A stretch of DNA of 5,412 nucleotides from a virus (taxonomy: Duplodnaviria; Heunggongvirae; Uroviricota; Caudoviricetes), in the IMG/VR virus record IMGVR_UViG_2648501669_000015, positions 1 to 5,412 of that record, one strand, 5' to 3'. A model generated the notes under the pieces. It did not search any database, was not told where the DNA came from, and saw nothing but the letters and a program-made list of their open reading frames with translations. Below are positions 1 to 5,412 of this stretch, piece after piece (positions within the stretch are counted from its first letter, which is position 1; each line of letters starts with the position of its first letter). Position numbers and translations under genes: made by a program.

Positions 1-1007
1 TTGGCGTAAAACTTCCCCTGCTTGCTCTCCCTGACCAGCCCTGTATTGATCCGTTGCTCAATACGGGTCAGATACGGCACAAGGGAATAGTTAATGAAAC
101 CAAGCCCCAGCTCTTCAATATTGTTGAAGGTGGCGCGATCGGTGTTCTGCACCATATGCAGCGGCACGCGGAACAGGCGACAGATTTCTTCCAGCTGAAA
201 CTTGCGGGTTTCCAGGAACTGGCTGTCCTCGGCATTCAGTGCCACCGTTTTCCAGTCCAGCCCCATTTCCAGAATCATCGGACGATGAGAGTTTCCCAGC
301 CCGACATGCCGTTCCTCAAAATCCTTTTTGATACGCGCATAAGCCTGGTCAGAAAGTTGTTGATCCGTACGCAACACACCGGATGTTACCGCGCCATTGC
401 CAAACAATCTGGCACCATGCTCCTCGGTTGCCGCTGCCAGTGAAATGGCCTCGCGCGCATATGCAATGGGATTCAGACCGACAAGTCCATCCAGCGTCAG
501 GGTACGCACATGCCAGATTTCATTCTGGGTCAGCACATCCACAGAACCATCCGGAAACGTCACCTGATAAACCGGCTGCCACTGGCTGTTCAGCTTCGGT
601 TCCACACAGCCCGGATCTATCGGAAGAAGCTCCACCACTTCCCCCAGTGCCTTTACCTTGTAGGCGTAAAAATTACCCCGCAGACACAGGCAGACGATAA
701 CCAGTTCCCAGAATTCCTGCGGCGTCATGTAGCCATTGGGTTTTGCCGAAATCAGCTTATGCAGCCGTTCATCCACCGCCCGTGTTTTAAGGGTGCCGCT
801 GATTTTGTAGAGACTGCAGGGCAGCATACCAACAGACTCAGCCAGCACCCTGACGCAGGAATAGACCGCCGTCAGCCGCATGGCCCGCTGGCTGCTGATC
901 CGCTTTCCGGTATAGGTGTCGTATGACAGCCCGATAGCCTCCGCCAGCTCTGCTGGCGTGGTCACCGGTGCGTCACTTTTTCGTTGAAATAACCCCGAAA
1001 AGAACAC
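1..1007 (-). CDS. Phage portal protein, HK97 family (partial; 3' end lies beyond the left edge of the window)
   Basis: My own minus-strand translation of 1..1007 is open throughout in one frame (codon tops at positions 2 mod 3) and gives ...TRKFQLEEICRLFRVPLHMVQNTDRATFNNIEELGLGFINYSLVPYLTRIEQRINTGLV..., which I recognise as HK97-type portal. Likely start is GTG at 1005-1007, preceded by GGAGGT (1013-1018) and overlapping the upstream TAG stop (TAGTG). It is absent from the ORF track only because it has no stop inside the window. It sits directly downstream of the large terminase, as expected. Confidence 0.82.
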   Translation of the reverse strand, partial: MFFSGLFQRKSDAPVTTPAELAEAIGLSYDTYTGKRISSQRAMRLTAVYSCVRVLAESVGMLPCSLYKISGTLKTRAVDERLHKLISAKPNGYMTPQEFWELVIVCLCLRGNFYAYKVKALGEVVELLPIDPGCVEPKLNSQWQPVYQVTFPDGSVDVLTQNEIWHVRTLTLDGLVGLNPIAYAREAISLAAATEEHGARLFGNGAVTSGVLRTDQQLSDQAYARIKKDFEERHVGLGNSHRPMILEMGLDWKTVALNAEDSQFLETRKFQLEEICRLFRVPLHMVQNTDRATFNNIEELGLGFINYSLVPYLTRIEQRINTGLVRESKQGKFYA

Positions 1008-1189
1008 TATTTACCTCCGCCGACAGACTGCCGTGTACGGTCGAGATATCGTGCAACCAGCCACGACCAGAACAGGCACAGCGCCCCGGCAACAACAAAA
1101 CCCGCCGGGGGATAAATCAGCCAGGCGCCATACGCCAGCAAAAGCACACCCAGCACGCCCACCAGAGGCGCGAGAATCAGCATGATCAT
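1007..1189 (-). CDS. Small hydrophobic protein (60 aa, two predicted TM helices), function unknown, between large terminase and portal
   Basis: ATG at 1187-1189 is preceded by GAGGT with about 4 nt spacing. The TAG stop at 1007-1009 overlaps the portal GTG start by 1 nt. The protein [60 protein letters not shown] has two hydrophobic spans and a basic C-terminus. Confidence 0.5.
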
Positions 1190-1200
1190 AATTACCTCAG

Positions 1201-2931
1201 TTAAAGCGAACGGATCCCGTAGGACTCAATGTGGTCAGACAGCGTGTCTTCTTTCTCAAATAGCATGCAACGACCAATCGCCATAATCAGCGCCACAGCA
1301 CCATCGATTTTGTTTTCGTTGCCTTGTTTGATCGGACGAACAACATCATCGTCGCCGGGAATGTGCTTTCCAATCACGTTGCTGATACACCATGTCATCA
1401 CAGGATTACCATCATGATGAAAACGCCCGGCCTCAATAGCCGCCTCAAGTTCCTTCATGGGATCCGACATATTGGTGTAGTTCTGAATGATGGTAATAGG
1501 GTTTAAGTTTTCATCAGCAAGGTGGTGAGAAAGGTTTGTGGCTCCGTGGGGATCTATAGGTGACTCCTCCACTGCGTTTAAGCGATTTGCTTCTTTCGCA
1601 GACTCAAGGATCTCCCGGTAATCAATTTCCGCACCATCGGTAACGGTAATAAATCCCCCTTCAACCCACTTCTGATAACGTTCTGCTGTGCGACTGTCTG
1701 TCACATCAGCGCTGTAGATTGTGTCGTAGGGAACAAAAAACTTGGGTGCGACACAATAATAATGCGTTTTACCGTCAATCTCTCGGGTAAAAAGCCGTAC
1801 CATCGCGTTCAAATCCAGCTTTCGCGCAAGGTCAAACGCCAGAATGCAGGTATGCCCCTCAAAACGCTCCAGCGTCAGACTCCTGTCTTCACATTTCTGC
1901 CAGTTCACAAGATTGAAGAAGGCGTCTTTTGCTGCCACCCAGATATTCAGATGTTTCGTTTTGAATACGCCCACTTTTCGTGGGTTGTTAATTGCCGCGC
2001 GCTGTTGAGATAACAGGTAATCGCTGTAGACAGAAATCCCCATATTGGGGTTCGCTTTACGCAATACCGCCGGATCTGTCCAGTCATCCCCGTCGTCAAT
2101 GGTATAAATAATCCCGAACAGTTCATCATTGGGCACAATCCCTTCAAGCATTTCGATCACTTCACGACGTTTGTCGTAGCATGGTCCTTCAATGTTATAG
2201 CCCGCAGTGGTGATACCAAAAATCAGCGGCTGACGACGTGCCCCCATCCCGGTTTGCATCGTCTGGTAAAGCGCATCGGTCTGATGCTCGTGATATTCAT
2301 CAATGAGGGCGCAACTCGGCGACGCGCCGTCCCCGGGATCTCCAATCAACGGTTCAAAACGGGCACCGTCCTCCGGACGGCTCATGCTTTGAGCATGTAC
2401 TTCAATACCAAATGCTTCACGCAATGGTTCCGTGCGTTGCGCCATCAGTCTGGCTGGACGAAAAACTTCCCACGCCTGTTTCTCTGTTGTGGCCCCGGAA
2501 TACACTTCAGCGCCAAATTCATCATCGCAGGCAAACATATACAGACCAACGCCAGCAGACATTGCTGATTTCCCGTTTTTACGGGGTATTTCGTTGTAAG
2601 CCTCGCGAAATCGACGCAGGCCGCTCTTTTTTCTCACCCACCCAAACACAACACAAATACAGAACAACTGCCAGGGTTCAAGCGTAATGGGCATCCGTTT
2701 AAATGCCCACTCCCCTTTGGTGTGTGGCAAAAGCTGGATAAATTTCGCTACACGCTCAGCTTTATCCTTATCAAATTTAAACGGATAGTTTTTTTTAGCT
2801 GAGTTTTCCAGGTCATCAAGGTGACGCTGGCAGGCCAGAACGACATAACGGCAAACCTGAATTTTTCCGCGAACCACGTCACGTGCATACTGATTTGCGG
2901 CGTTAACGTTCACGTAATTTTTTCGTGTCAT
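1201..2931 (-). CDS. Phage terminase large subunit (Terminase_1 / HK97-like TerL: ATPase plus nuclease)
   Basis: A 576-aa ORF with the characteristic length and sequence character of HK97-type large terminases (N-terminal ATPase region ...[14 protein letters not shown]..., acidic C-terminal nuclease region ...[12 protein letters not shown]...). The ATG at 2929-2931 overlaps the TGA of the upstream small-terminase gene (ATGA). Confidence 0.92.
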
Positions 2932-3398
2932 AGGTTTTTAAATGGATTATCGCTCCCCTGCTTCGGCGTGATAAGCCGCTGCCGACTGGCAGGATCGAGC
3001 CCTAATAAACTACCGAATGTCACCATTTGTCTGGCGGCCTCATTTGCCGCCGTGAGTGCCGGGTTTTTCTTTGGCCCCACCTCACTCTCTACCGTAATCC
3101 CAACGCGCATAACCTCCTGCTGCGACTCATGCCAGTTGCGAAAAGCAGTGCAGAATGCAACGACATTATGCAAATCAGTAACATAAAGAACTCGCTGGGC
3201 ACAGAGCTCACGAATAATGGTATCCCACATATGGCGAGCGGTTTCATCAAACCACTCGGGAGGGTCAGCATGGGTGATCGGCGTGAATTTTGGCTCAAAC
3301 TTATTTAATGCCCGCTTGCCGGGATTGCCTGCCAGCTCCTTACGGGTGGTCGGCTTCGGCTTTCTCCCTCTTCCGGGCGCAACAGATTTTCCTGACAT
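2928..3398 (-). CDS. Phage terminase small subunit, P27 family
   Basis: Starting from the internal ATG at 3396-3398 gives [38 protein letters not shown]..., a typical P27-type TerS N-terminus. The track's longer ORF (to 3599) would overlap the HNH gene and the putative cos region. A weak AGGA lies about 10 nt upstream. The stop overlaps the TerL start. Confidence 0.85.
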
Positions 3399-3513
3399 GT
3401 CAAATCCTGAAATTTTTAATTTCGCGGGTGTAAAAATTTGACGGGGCGGGCGGTCCCGGACAGCCAGGGTTGCAGGGATTTGACCCGCCCCTCCCCACAA
3501 GTGAGAATAATTA
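3399..3513. other. Candidate cos / packaging-initiation region (HNH-to-TerS intergenic)
   Basis: A 115-bp non-coding gap with ATTTGAC at 3436-3442 and 3478-3484 (direct, about 42 bp apart), each followed by a GC-rich element in opposite orientation (GGGGCGGG at 3443-3450, CCGCCCC at 3485-3491), and an inverted GTCAAAT copy at 3399-3405 abutting the TerS start codon. Its position between HNH and TerS matches where cos lies in HK97-like phages. Confidence 0.35.
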
Positions 3514-3864
3514 TCACCTGATTCGTTCGCGCGCTGTTTTCGCTTTATGGCAGGGCCAGCACAGACTCTGCAGGTTGCTGTCTGCGTCTGTTCCGCCATG
3601 CGCTTTCGGGATGATGTGGTCGACAGTTTTCGCCTCGCTCACCACACCAACACGCAGACACAACTGACACAGACCTTTATCGCGCTTCAGTATACGGGCG
3701 CGAATCACCGTCCATTTTGAGCCATAGCCACGCTGGTGGCGGCTCAGTCCGCGCTGGTGCTGCACCCAGCCTTCACCCCGATGTTTATCGCAGTAGCCAG
3801 AGCTGTCTGTTGTTGTGCCTGCGCAGCCTCGCTTACGGCATGCGCGGGGGATTCGTGACGGCAT
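3514..3864 (-). CDS. HNH endonuclease (phage packaging-associated HNH)
   Basis: A 116-aa ORF with a Cys-rich N-terminus (CRKRGCAGTTTDSSGYCDKH) and an HNH core (DHIIPKAHGGTDADSNLQSLCWPCHKAKT). It lies immediately upstream of cos and TerS, as in HK97-like phages. Confidence 0.9.
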   Translation of the reverse strand: MPSRIPRACRKRGCAGTTTDSSGYCDKHRGEGWVQHQRGLSRHQRGYGSKWTVIRARILKRDKGLCQLCLRVGVVSEAKTVDHIIPKAHGGTDADSNLQSLCWPCHKAKTARERIR

Positions 3865-3892
3865 AGAACTTCACTCATCTGATGTTAAAATT
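3864..3892 (+). promoter_or_regulatory. Candidate sigma70 promoter with extended -10 (TGtTAAAAT) for the plus-strand moron gene
   Basis: TGT at 3883-3885 followed by TAAAAT at 3886-3891, with a weak -35-like TAGAAC at 3864-3869 (about 16 bp spacing). It lies 34 nt upstream of the ATG at 3925, in the divergent gap between HNH and the plus-strand ORF. Confidence 0.25.
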
Positions 3893-3924
3893 CCCACCCT
3901 TTAAAAAAACAATACGGAGGACAA

Positions 3925-4125
3925 ATGAAAAACACGATTTCTAAAGGCTTTCACCGGGTAGGAATTCTGTTAGCTATTCTGGTGTTCATTTTCGGCCTTT
4001 TATCAACAGAGACCCGGGGGTTTTCACTGTTTGATATCCTTGTTTCCCTGATATCTGCCTTGTTGGTATACAGCATCATCAGGCTTGTGGGATGGGCCAT
4101 TAAAGGATTTATGAAAGACAACTAA
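3925..4125 (+). CDS. Small 2-TM membrane protein (66 aa), moron-like accessory gene of unknown function, counter-oriented to the phage late genes
   Basis: Strong Shine-Dalgarno GGAGG at 3916-3920, 4 nt before the ATG. The protein MKNTISKGFHRVGILLAILVFIFGLLSTETRGFSLFDILVSLISALLVYSIIRLVGWAIKGFMKDN has two hydrophobic helices separated by a short polar loop. The region is visibly AT-richer than the flanking phage genes (by eye, not computed). It is the only plus-strand gene in the window. Confidence 0.6.
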   Translation: MKNTISKGFHRVGILLAILVFIFGLLSTETRGFSLFDILVSLISALLVYSIIRLVGWAIKGFMKDN

Positions 4126-4135
4126 AGCATTATCG

Positions 4136-4162
4136 CAGCCCATCGCTGTGTGAAGGGCTGCT
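4136..4162. terminator. Perfect 7-bp stem hairpin (GCAGCCC / GGGCTGC, 13-nt loop) just 3' of the plus-strand moron gene; possible terminator or RNA-stability element without a U-tract
   Basis: The inverted repeat was read directly and starts 11 nt after the TAA stop at 4123-4125. No T-run follows on either strand, so an intrinsic-terminator role is uncertain. Confidence 0.25.
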
Positions 4163-4172
4163 GTAATGCCTG

Positions 4173-4185
4173 TTACTCAGTAACG
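4173..4185. promoter_or_regulatory. Short perfect palindrome GTTAC-TCA-GTAAC between convergent genes
   Basis: Read directly from the sequence. It could be a protein-binding site or a small hairpin; its function is unknown. Confidence 0.15.
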
Positions 4186-4204
4186 ACTGCGCCTTCCGGC
4201 AATT

Positions 4205-4333
4205 TCACGTCTTATCAAACAGCGCCAACAATTCAGAATTTATCTTCTCGAAGCATTCTGAATTAAGTCGAGTGCCAACTGCTACATTTGCTGATGCAGC
4301 AGCTTTTTTATTTAGATTATTTTTCTTCTCCAT
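4205..4333 (-). CDS. Hypothetical small protein (42 aa, Lys/Ala-rich, non-hydrophobic), AT-rich, downstream of the lysis lipoprotein
   Basis: Hand translation of the minus strand gives MEKKNNLNKKAAASANVAVGTRLNSECFEKINSELLALFDKT with a TGA stop at 4205-4207. AAGAGGGT lies about 7 nt upstream of the ATG at 4331-4333. It falls below the ORF-track size cutoff. It could equally be non-coding. Confidence 0.3.
   Translation of the reverse strand: MEKKNNLNKKAAASANVAVGTRLNSECFEKINSELLALFDKT
4290..4309 (+). terminator. Weak candidate intrinsic terminator (plus strand): GCTG-ATGCAG-CAGC hairpin followed by TTTTTT
   Basis: A 4-5 bp stem at 4290-4303 is followed by a T6 run at 4304-4309. It is about 165 nt downstream of the plus-strand moron gene stop and lies inside the minus-strand 42-aa ORF. 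Confidence 0.25.
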
Positions 4334-4372
4334 TAATCTACCCTCTTAAATATAGATGCGGAGTGTCAGCGA

Positions 4373-4555
4373 TCAGTTCTGCAGACACTGCCGAACACCG
4401 TCGACAATTTCACAGACCTGAGAAGCCGTATCGAAAAGCTGGCGCGCCTTATCCAGGCTAACGCATCCCACCAATAAAAAAGGCACCAGTATCACTACCA
4501 GTGCCCATTTCGCCGCCGTTCGCGGCATTCTGTGTGTCCAGTGTTTTCTGCTCAT
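4373..4555 (-). CDS. Small lipoprotein (about 60 aa precursor) in the lysis cassette; possible o-spanin-like or other lysis/exclusion lipoprotein
   Basis: Starting at the internal ATG at 4553-4555 (AGGTG about 4 nt upstream, and after the endolysin stop) gives MSRKHWTHRMPRTAAKWALVVILVPFLLVGC|VSLDKARQLFDTASQVCEIVDGVRQCLQN. This has a basic N-region, a hydrophobic core and an L-V-G-C lipobox, leaving a short mature peptide with three Cys. The track's longer ORF (to 4627) would overlap the endolysin 3' end. Confidence 0.5.
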   Translation of the reverse strand: MSRKHWTHRMPRTAAKWALVVILVPFLLVGCVSLDKARQLFDTASQVCEIVDGVRQCLQN

Positions 4556-4569
4556 AACACACCTGGTTA

Positions 4570-4947
4570 TCAGCGTTTCAACTGAAAGTGAGGCCCGTCT
4601 TTCAGTGTTTTCCAGTCCCCGCCCCATTCGATGGCAGTTCCCAGCTCTGCGGCAGCCTGCTTAAATGCCTGCGCGATTTTCTCGTACAGAGGCCAGTCCC
4701 ATGACACCTGGCTGCCACCCCAGGCAACAACATCCACCGCATCACCGGTCAGATGGCGGCTGTTCATGGTCTGGCTCTTACCTTCTGCGACCAGCTGTTT
4801 CTGGCGATACTTACTGCGCAGGCCTTCCGTAATACCGAAATCAACCTCCGTCAGCTCAAGGGCACGGCGAACGACAGCAACCAGCTGTGGTTTGACGCCC
4901 TCCAGATTCTTTTCGCTGCGACGACTAAATCTGAATTTACCCGACAT
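4570..4947 (-). CDS. Endolysin, peptidase M15 family (L-alanyl-D-glutamate / D-Ala-D-Ala-type zinc peptidase)
   Basis: The protein carries zinc-peptidase M15-type motifs: SRHLTGDAVDV and WGGDW...DGPHFQL. The likely start is ATG at 4945-4947 with GAGGTG upstream; the track's GTG at 4953 is an alternative. It lies directly downstream of the holin-like gene. Confidence 0.82.
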   Translation of the reverse strand: MSGKFRFSRRSEKNLEGVKPQLVAVVRRALELTEVDFGITEGLRSKYRQKQLVAEGKSQTMNSRHLTGDAVDVVAWGGSQVSWDWPLYEKIAQAFKQAAAELGTAIEWGGDWKTLKDGPHFQLKR

Positions 4948-4949
4948 AT

Positions 4950-5225
4950 TCACCTCAACAATGGAAAGATTTTTGTGACGTTCCCGCGTGCGCGTATCAC
5001 CAGCACGCAGAACAGCAGGTTAAAAAACACCTGGAACCAGTCTGTTTCTAACGGGCGACCACACAGATAGCTGAGTGGAACAAAGCCATAAAGCAACATC
5101 AGCAGCCAGGCCAGCCATGACATCAGCGGTTTATGTCTGGAATCACGGCGACGATAAAAAAAGAGCGTCAGCACGATAACCGTGCATAACGCCACATTCA
5201 GTAATCCGGGAAGGTTACTTAACAT
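4950..5225 (-). CDS. Putative holin (about 91 aa, three predicted TM segments, basic C-terminus)
   Basis: ATG at 5223-5225 is preceded by GGAGG with 5 nt spacing. The protein MLSNLPGLLNVALCTVIVLTLFFY...LMSWLAWLLMLLYGFVPLSYL...WFQVFFNLLFCVLVIRARGNVTKIFPLLR is hydrophobic. The TGA stop at 4950-4952 abuts the endolysin start, as in holin-endolysin cassettes. No holin family is recognised by sequence. Confidence 0.45.
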   Translation of the reverse strand: MLSNLPGLLNVALCTVIVLTLFFYRRRDSRHKPLMSWLAWLLMLLYGFVPLSYLCGRPLETDWFQVFFNLLFCVLVIRARGNVTKIFPLLR

Positions 5226-5412
5226 TGTCGCCTCCACCACTCTTCAGGCGGGAGAGCAGACAGGACATCAGTGATATAACGTCCTGCCTGTGCACAAAGG
5301 ACAGCACTTTTACCGACAATACAGACACCAGTACTGCACACAATGCGTCGACAGGTGCACCGTCAAACTCTGTATGCTTTACCAGCCAGGATGCCAGAAC
5401 CTCTGCCCCCAG
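5215..5412 (-). CDS. Partial ORF (C-terminal 65 codons; start beyond the right edge), hydrophobic; possibly a second holin/antiholin-like or other late protein
   Basis: It is the only minus-strand frame open across 5241..5412 and gives ...LGAEVLASWLVKHTEFDGAPVDALCAVLVSVLSVKVLSFVHRQDVISLMSCLLSRLKSGGGDNVK*. The TAA stop at 5215-5217 overlaps the start of the holin-like gene. An open frame of this length could arise by chance. Confidence 0.25.
   Translation of the reverse strand: MGAEVLASWLVKHTEFDGAPVDALCAVLVSVLSVKVLSFVHRQDVISLMSCLLSRLKSGGGDNVK

Follow-up and report, generated by a model that had tools for sequence, protein, structure and literature searches.

The 5,412-nucleotide (nt) stretch of DNA analysed here, hereafter the window (IMG/VR record IMGVR_UViG_2648501669_000015, positions 1 to 5,412), is the late region of a phiP27-like Escherichia coli prophage of the Stx2e-phage family, with an HK97-type head and a P27-type TerS. 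It contains the open reading frame (ORF) ORF66, which is a real gene under purifying selection and belongs to an undescribed protein family without a Pfam/DUF, PHROG, NCBIfam or PADLOC entry. Comparison with related prophages supports the view that ORF66 and its leader (3865-4126) constitute a moron, an accessory cassette in a swap-prone slot between a hairpin of the phage backbone and the start codon of the HNH endonuclease gene. We propose that ORF66 encodes a hairpin protein that would be expressed in the lysogen, silenced during lytic growth and beneficial to the lysogen, most probably by superinfection exclusion; the probability of this proposal is put at about 0.4.

The ORF66 cassette and its slot

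All recognisable phage genes of the window, from the portal fragment to the holin gene, are located on the minus strand, as had been stated in an earlier reading made from the letters only (the sequence-only reading). Among these late genes ORF66 alone is read from the plus strand. The same reading had delimited an AT-rich island at 3865-4372, with the lysis cassette on one side and the HNH/cos/terminase module on the other. The segment does differ from its flanks: its guanine-plus-cytosine (GC) content is 41.1% compared to 52.2% in the remainder of the window, and the lowest-GC segment of 508 base pairs (bp) begins at 3850, with 0.5% of such segments being equally low. However, the added DNA comprises only a part of the island. 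The anatomy was deduced from the comparison with phiP27 and with E. coli A36, A8, PSS-15 and K_EC180. Homology to phiP27 ends at the start of the HNH gene (3864) and restarts at 4127, which leaves a clean 262-bp indel and places the cassette in the proposed position. In phiP27 the hairpin is found about 20 nt past the HNH start, with no cassette in between. The 508-bp segment consists of three pieces, namely the cassette (3865-4126), phage backbone (4127-4208) and a block of A36 type (4208-4372). The segment 3865-4372 is thus a composite of which only 3865-4126 is the moron. The cassette contains the following features:

3865-4126, plus strand: ORF66 cassette, composed of a 60-nt leader and a 201-nt coding sequence; a precise 262-bp indel relative to phiP27
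3864-3891, plus strand: putative sigma-70 promoter with a weak -35 element TAGAAC (3864-3869), a 16-nt spacer and an extended -10 element TGtTAAAAT (3883-3891)
3916-3920, plus strand: Shine-Dalgarno sequence GGAGG, 4 nt before the ATG, read from the sequence
3925-4125, plus strand: ORF66, a two-helix inner-membrane protein of 66 amino acids (aa), predicted to have both termini in the cytoplasm (N-in/C-in)

The truly AT-rich portions of the segment are the 60-nt leader (35% GC) and the stretch 4205-4333 (36% GC). Within ORF66 the GC fraction is 0.40 at the first, 0.33 at the second and 0.51 at the third codon position (GC3), and the low GC of the gene is largely the result of its hydrophobic amino-acid composition, which is expressed at positions 1 and 2. 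The GC3 of the neighbouring genes spans 0.50-0.61, with TerL at 0.50. Because the GC3 of ORF66 equals that of TerL, low GC was rejected as a proof of foreign origin.

The slot between the HNH gene and the lysis genes is variable and cargo-bearing. Alternative occupants are present in A36, A8 and PSS-15, and in A36 the occupant is an unrelated minus-strand gene of 98 aa. The gene arrangement of the window is not an assembly oddity, since the IMG/VR contig L042 matches positions 787-5412 at 99.5% identity. DNA resembling ORF66 was found in 21 of 5,426 complete E. coli genomes (0.4%). The occurrences in E. coli comprise 13 full-length copies, 3 copies truncated at the prophage end beside hyaA, and 6 unannotated copies at about 71% identity. 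A wider query covering 3400-4700 (HNH gene to endolysin gene) had at least a partial match in 1,120 E. coli genomes, and about 98% of the relatives, phiP27 included, do not contain ORF66. With this distribution ORF66 is not a conserved core gene. No match to ORF66 was obtained by tblastn in 50,697 phage isolate records, and among species-representative genomes the search with the close-family alignment retrieved only Citrobacter braakii. In E. coli STEC306-308 (L005 3061-3309) the prophage breaks off within the 3′-terminal part of its ORF66 homologue, beside hyaA; the truncation gives an 82-aa fusion ORF in which both transmembrane (TM) helices are kept and the final residues are lost.

In phiP27-like loci the close homologues all begin 60-67 nt from the HNH start and are divergent to it; in the window the two genes are 60 nt apart. 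This spacing and linkage hold across different following endolysin types (M15, GH108 and lysozyme). The homologue P0010, which is 65% identical to ORF66, is encoded in lambda-like prophages (L029-L031 5001-5207), with the lysis cassette on one side and Nu1 on the other. In these prophages LT-II enterotoxin genes are inserted between the holin and endolysin genes. A homologue with 49% identity (L057) begins 67 nt from the HNH start beside a different lysis cassette, and those in L054 (43% identical) and L055 are also located at the lysis/packaging junction. The diverged members, including the one in a phage with a TerL of only 24% identity, are found between lysis and packaging genes on the strand opposite to the late genes. 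Since relatives of 43-65% identity hold the same slot in diverged phages, ORF66 is probably not a recent insertion; it is rather an old resident of a moron hotspot, which would have been frequently lost or swapped. The synonymous divergence (dS) of ORF66 and of the HNH gene disagrees for the same pairs of loci (0.19 against 1.24 in one pair and 1.10 against 0.24 in another), which demonstrates recombination between the two genes.

The location directly beside the lysis cassette and the HNH/terminase genes raises the question of whether ORF66 is an accessory of the lytic cycle, either a regulator of lysis timing (an antiholin or a holin modulator) or a factor of packaging and the cos region. 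Class II holins are among the two-TM proteins with N-in/C-in topology, and the association with the junction holds down to 43% identity. However, ORF66 is on the strand opposite to the late operon, which makes co-transcription with either the lysis genes or the packaging genes impossible. It is also dispensable, being absent from phiP27 and from most phages sharing this lysis cassette, and its linkage is kept despite the change of endolysin. Distant members of the family reside on plasmids and islands without lysis genes, and no holin family in Pfam or PHROG matched ORF66. A role in the lytic cycle is thus disfavoured by strand, dispensability and non-phage relatives, and only a slim chance is left to it.

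The ORF66 protein and its family

The coding character of ORF66, annotated in E. coli A8 as the hypothetical protein WP_001542814.1, is evident from its divergence pattern. Pairwise ratios of nonsynonymous to synonymous divergence (dN/dS) are 0.1-0.3, with dS reaching values above 1. When all six frames are compared, dN/dS is lowest for the sense frame (median 0.22) and next lowest for the in-phase antisense frame (0.30), for which a low value is expected because both frames share their wobble positions. What decides the matter is that the family of the sense protein includes detectable members that share only about 30% identity and are encoded on contigs with a GC content of 44-65%.

It could be argued that the protein is incidental and that the segment matters as DNA or RNA, for example as a spacer or as a roadblock or antisense element that tunes read-through into the HNH and terminase genes, or that the true gene is the antisense ORF of 56 aa (3951-4121, minus strand). 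The segment lies inside the late transcript, and the in-phase antisense frame is open in most of the close homologues and has the low dN/dS given above. However, the antisense ORF is broken in two homologous loci (L004 and L054), and open antisense frames are expected opposite hydrophobic genes rich in NTN codons. The sense frame is the one with the lowest dN/dS, and its family motifs stay invariant in members that are only about 30% identical and whose contigs differ widely in GC. The ATG and the Shine-Dalgarno sequence are conserved, and the structure of the protein is predicted with confidence by AlphaFold2 (AF2). On the strength of the sense dN/dS, the two broken copies and the invariant sense motifs the antisense ORF was rejected as a real gene, and we consider an incidental origin of the protein to be very improbable.

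The hydrophobic helices of ORF66 span residues ~12-27 and ~34-59. The N-terminus, the loop and the C-terminus have net charges of +3, 0 and +2, respectively, and a cytoplasmic location is predicted for both termini. AF2 models the protein as a helical hairpin (H2-27 and H35-65), and the mean predicted local distance difference test (pLDDT) score is 86.6. ORF, hydropathy and model thus agree with the sequence-only reading, which had described a plus-strand gene at 3925..4125 for a protein of 66 aa with two TM helices. ORF66 contains no lipobox and no cysteine, whereas Bor-like lipoproteins are recognised by a signal peptide with a lipobox cysteine.

A profile search in 1.84 billion representatives yielded 132 matches at E <= 1e-3, and a second search in a database of 5.8 billion proteins yielded 363 matches at the same threshold. 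A Pfam domain or an informative name was found for 0 of the 120 matches listed from the second search. The family profile matches ORF66 over its full length. Members share two TM helices and a core of about 65-77 aa, and ORF66 equals the minimal members in length and topology. The family signature (GFHRxG...Y...R..GW...GF) is composed of [S/H]xGFHRxG before the first TM helix and YxxxRxxGWxxxGF at the end of the second one. In an alignment of 30 sequences H10, R11, G13, Y49 and W57 are invariant, and all five are present in ORF66. According to the predicted topology, the conserved residues (His10-Arg11-Gly13; Tyr49, Arg53, Trp57 and Gly61-Phe62) would form one patch at the cytoplasmic face. 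The loop between the helices ranges from 6 to more than 90 residues. In longer members the helices are separated by an insertion of 40-90 aa, or the C-terminus is extended (a tRNA_anti-like OB domain, DUF2569), and these domain fusions are uninformative. The periplasmic loop appears to be free to vary or to host inserted domains.

The suggestion that ORF66 falls outside the characterised families was borne out. Searches against Pfam, PHROGs, NCBIfam and PADLOC gave nothing above threshold. The Pfam entry PF04226 (transglycosylase-associated GlsB/YeaQ/YmgE) reached 14.8 bits, below its gathering threshold of 25.3 bits (E = 0.034). It had no match at E <= 0.01 among the 30 family members scanned, for which Pfam gave only scattered chance matches. 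A profile search of PDB and Foldseek searches of BFVD and PDB returned no significant match, as expected, because the helical hairpin is a generic fold. The literature retrieved with the accession numbers and on LT-II prophages does not mention ORF66. The small family gene is systematically under-called; members are unannotated in six E. coli chromosomes (about 71% nucleotide identity) and on two conjugative plasmids of 150 kb (NZ_OP242271.1 and NZ_OP242220.1).

The distant members are mostly located on mobile elements, namely in fimbrial and virulence loci flanked by insertion sequences, on two conjugative plasmids and in a phage-plasmid-like operon with helix-turn-helix (HTH), ParA and toxin-antitoxin genes. 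The survey of their contexts revealed no conserved partner gene. In the last case (L036 5523-7651, on a contig of 65% GC) the distant member P0143 stands in an operon after an HTH_3 regulator and is followed by SWIB, ParA and a ribbon-helix-helix (RHH) antitoxin, and a YafQ/ParE-like toxin gene is read from the other strand; the arrangement resembles the maintenance region of a phage-plasmid.

Such neighbourhoods bear on the possibility that ORF66 acts on the membrane as a toxin or as an effector of abortive infection. The hairpin would then oligomerise to form a pore or a depolarising channel, which on triggering or derepression would kill or arrest the cell and would otherwise be held in check by the antisense late transcript or by low expression. 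The protein is a small hydrophobic hairpin with conserved His, Arg, Tyr and Trp at one membrane face, its gene is convergent with a strong antisense transcript in a manner that resembles type I toxin control, and family members occur on plasmids and phage-plasmid-like elements beside addiction genes (ParA, RHH/YafQ). However, there is no conserved adjacent antitoxin or small RNA gene (the Rfam scan of the whole window found no family), no PADLOC match was obtained, and an unguarded toxin would not normally be expected to have a strong Shine-Dalgarno sequence together with a promoter of constitutive appearance. Typical type I toxins have a single TM helix, whereas ORF66 has two in 66 aa. A toxin function is regarded as quite unlikely.

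Expression signals and flanking elements

The expression of ORF66 is likely to depend on signals located in the 60-nt leader. The extended -10 element at 3883-3891 is TGTTAAAAT, and promoter prediction from the sequence places the transcription start near 3898. The motif GATGnTAAAAT is kept in 14 of 15 distinct leaders of the close family, with T, C or G at the variable position. The weight of the -10 motif comes from this conservation among leaders and not from its single occurrence in the window. The ribosome-binding site GGAGG that the sequence-only reading had assigned to ORF66 was confirmed at 3916-3920; GGAG or GGAA is retained across the homologous loci, and the ATG is conserved as well. 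The leader and ORF66 travel together, since TGnTAAAAT and GGAG are also kept in the lambda-like LT-II prophages, where the neighbour is Nu1/cos and not the HNH gene. Where ORF66 is inserted, the upstream region of the HNH gene (3865-3885, minus strand) has a weak Shine-Dalgarno sequence (GAG..) compared to AAGGAG in phiP27, and the cassette may lower the initiation of HNH translation.

Downstream of ORF66 the following elements were identified:

4127-4169: inverted repeat (hairpin) GCATTAT.GCAGCCC - variable loop - GGGCTGC.GTAATGC, at the backbone junction and outside the cassette
4173-4208, minus strand: remnant with the last 11 codons and the stop of a phiP27 L33-type gene (..KLPEGAVVTE*)
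4205-4333, minus strand: orf42, a putative ORF of 42 aa in late-operon orientation with the Shine-Dalgarno sequence AAGAGGG; WP_258796094.1 in A36
4288-4312, plus strand: terminator-like stem (TTGCTGATGCAGCAG) followed by CTTTTTTATT, 163 nt past the ORF66 stop; weak, from a consensus scan

Hairpins downstream of ORF66 had been pointed out in the sequence-only reading, and a strong one is indeed present at 4127-4169. Its minimum free energy as RNA is -27.7 kcal/mol on the plus strand and -25.5 kcal/mol on the minus strand (z = -5.3 on the plus strand, about -5 for the two strands). In 13 distinct copies the arms are nearly invariant and the loop is hypervariable, with 13 pairs and 2 compensatory changes. 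However, the hairpin belongs to the shared backbone: it is also present in phiP27, A36 and K_EC180, none of which contains ORF66. It was rejected as the terminator of ORF66 because it is not followed by a T-run and is present without the gene. Further copies of the inverted repeat, of 13-15 bp, were found at L003 3485-3527, L002 3820-3862 and L006 2510-2550. The repeat marks a homology break among phiP27-like phages, at which differing cargo is swapped. It has no match in Rfam and could be an element for the processing or stability of the late transcript, or a recombination junction.

The remnant at 4173-4208 can be aligned with the 3′ end of L33 in phiP27 and with that of the 98-aa genes found in A8 and PSS-15. 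It is a part of the backbone, and over 100 E. coli genomes contain it, irrespective of the presence of ORF66. The A36-type block 4126-4600, which contains orf42, is 96.4% identical to A36; orf42, which the sequence-only reading does not mention, resembles the C-terminal part of phiP27 L31 and has a very low GC3 (0.33). The terminator-like element at 4288-4312 is antisense inside orf42, belongs to a different mosaic block and shows no joint conservation with ORF66. Its occurrence may be a coincidence, because the T-run is the complement of Lys codons.

The remaining genes of the window are:

Portal gene fragment, minus strand
1007-1189, minus strand: YmfR-like membrane protein of 60 aa
1201-2931, minus strand: TerL
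2928-3398, minus strand: P27-type TerS
3514-3864, minus strand: HNH endonuclease, a packaging accessory (Pfam HNH, E = 1.7e-16)
4373-4555, minus strand: lipoprotein of 60 aa with the lipobox LVGC (phrog_7528, E = 5e-38)
4570-4953, minus strand: M15 endolysin
4950-5240, minus strand: holin

The HNH gene is the divergent neighbour of ORF66. The lipoprotein gene is the last gene of the lysis cassette and forms the right-hand flank of the cargo slot. Its product, a member of phrog_7528 (unknown function) encoded directly after the M15 endolysin, has three Cys within a mature part of about 29 aa and could be a lysis lipoprotein, o-spanin-like or of another kind; an i-spanin to match it is not apparent in the window. 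Relatives are annotated with a shorter start (51 aa), and in some of them an extra TM protein of 37-38 aa is encoded upstream (L018 6432-6545, L004 4511-4627). A terminator-like hairpin with a T-run at 4481-4506 (minus strand) lies inside the region that encodes the signal peptide of the lipoprotein, within the late operon. The YmfR-like protein, which has two TM helices, is kept between TerL and portal in every related locus and is a core small membrane protein of the packaging/head module.

Possible function and known systems

The analysis establishes the boundaries of the cassette, its accessory status, the purifying selection on ORF66, the conservation of the leader, the fold as a membrane hairpin, the family signature, and the recurrence of position and orientation. 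We infer for ORF66 promoter activity, expression in the lysogen, the N-in/C-in topology and an exclusion function, each as a part of the following model. In the lysogen the gene would be transcribed from a promoter of its own, and in the lytic phase convergent transcription of the late genes would silence it. The patch at the cytoplasmic face would mediate the action of the protein, either on an inner-membrane component of the host or through self-association, and the lysogen would benefit because superinfecting phages are excluded at the DNA-entry step or at a membrane step. Superinfection exclusion is a leading but tentative guess, modelled on HK97 gp15. Doubtful, though worth stating, is the broader possibility that the ORF66 family represents a new module for superinfection exclusion, membrane-level defence or host manipulation in phages, plasmids and islands, with a His-Arg/Tyr/Trp patch at the cytoplasmic membrane face and a programme that is on in the lysogen and off in the lytic cycle. 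ORF66 would then be a founding, phage-borne member of this widespread family, whose preferred site would be the lysis/packaging junction in antisense to late transcription.

Several observations weigh against the exclusion model and against an autonomous moron. A conserved patch on the cytoplasmic side, combined with hypervariability of the periplasmic loop, is unexpected for a protein that recognises an incoming tail tip in the periplasm. No homology of ORF66 to a known exclusion or defence protein was found with PADLOC or by hhalign against gp15: no defence component of PADLOC-DB v2 matched at E <= 1, and the hhalign comparison of the family profile with HK97 gp15 gave a probability of 2.5% over 10 aligned columns, so that the two are not homologous. 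A few distant members are in apparently non-mobile chromosomal contexts, and the function of the family need not be phage-related for this reason. The GC3 of ORF66 gives no signal of foreign origin. No T-run follows the hairpin 4127-4169 on either strand, and the cassette owns no canonical terminator. With regard to the promoter, TGNTAAAAT occurs once compared to 0.23 expected occurrences and is found at least once in 39 of 200 shuffles, which alone is not significant; the standard sigma-70 -35/-10 scan misses the proposed promoter, and there is no good -35 element. The extended -10 element described in the sequence-only reading is present and conserved, but it was not detected by the standard scan. 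Of the autonomous transcription unit described there, the extra accessory DNA is confirmed and the leader is promoter-like and conserved, but no terminator belongs to the cassette, and the GC deviation of the ORF is largely due to amino-acid composition.

If ORF66 excludes phages or alters the host membrane, a function would be assigned to an unannotated family of at least 132 representative clusters. In that case a second well-defined type of occupant, besides bor, would be recognised at the lysis/cos moron hotspot of toxin-converting phages (Stx2e, LT-II). As it stands, the cassette is a solid and unsurprising example of phage mosaicism and a fairly ordinary moron.

The moron elements of lambdoid and HK97-like phages were reportedly treated by Juhala et al. 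in 2000. Morons are defined as extra DNA of deviating GC with its own promoter and terminator and with expression from the prophage (Cumby et al. 2012, PMC3594210). Like these elements, the ORF66 cassette is extra compared to close relatives, is located between conserved late genes, has a GC below that of its flanks, carries promoter-like signals, is spread among differing phages and encodes a small envelope protein. Unlike them, it has no canonical terminator of its own, and the GC deviation of its ORF comes from the amino-acid composition.

In phage lambda, the moron bor is located between Rz/Rz1 and cos, on the strand opposite to the late operon. ORF66 likewise adjoins the end of the lysis cassette on the cos/terminase side and is oriented against the late operon, and the homologue P0010 occupies the exact place of bor in a lambda-like prophage. 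The shared position and orientation suggest another possible role, that of a lysogenic-conversion or host-fitness factor like lambda Bor, which would modulate a process of the host envelope or membrane such as stress tolerance, transport, division or colonisation. Close relatives are found in toxin-converting phages (Stx2e family, LT-II prophages), distant ones beside fimbrial and virulence-plasmid loci, and some family members in non-phage chromosomal contexts; the cytoplasm-facing patch would suit a contact with a conserved host protein. However, homology to known conversion factors and a conserved partner or co-occurring host gene are both missing, and the rarity of ORF66 in E. coli (0.4% of genomes) speaks against a strong general fitness benefit. 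Bor itself, unlike ORF66, is an outer-membrane lipoprotein of 97 aa, and the two share no sequence relationship. A Bor-like function is considered unlikely.

For the favoured reading, expression in the lysogen with exclusion of superinfecting phages, HK97 gp15 serves as the model. This small inner-membrane moron product acts in superinfection exclusion (PMC3594210). Unlike ORF66, the gp15 gene is part of the tail operon, shares its strand and is annotated with a putative terminator, and the GFHR...GW...GF signature of the ORF66 family is missing from gp15. The likeness of ORF66 to gp15, a YebO-related protein, is that of a small inner-membrane moron protein of an HK97-type phage, with 62 aa for gp15 compared to 66 aa for ORF66.

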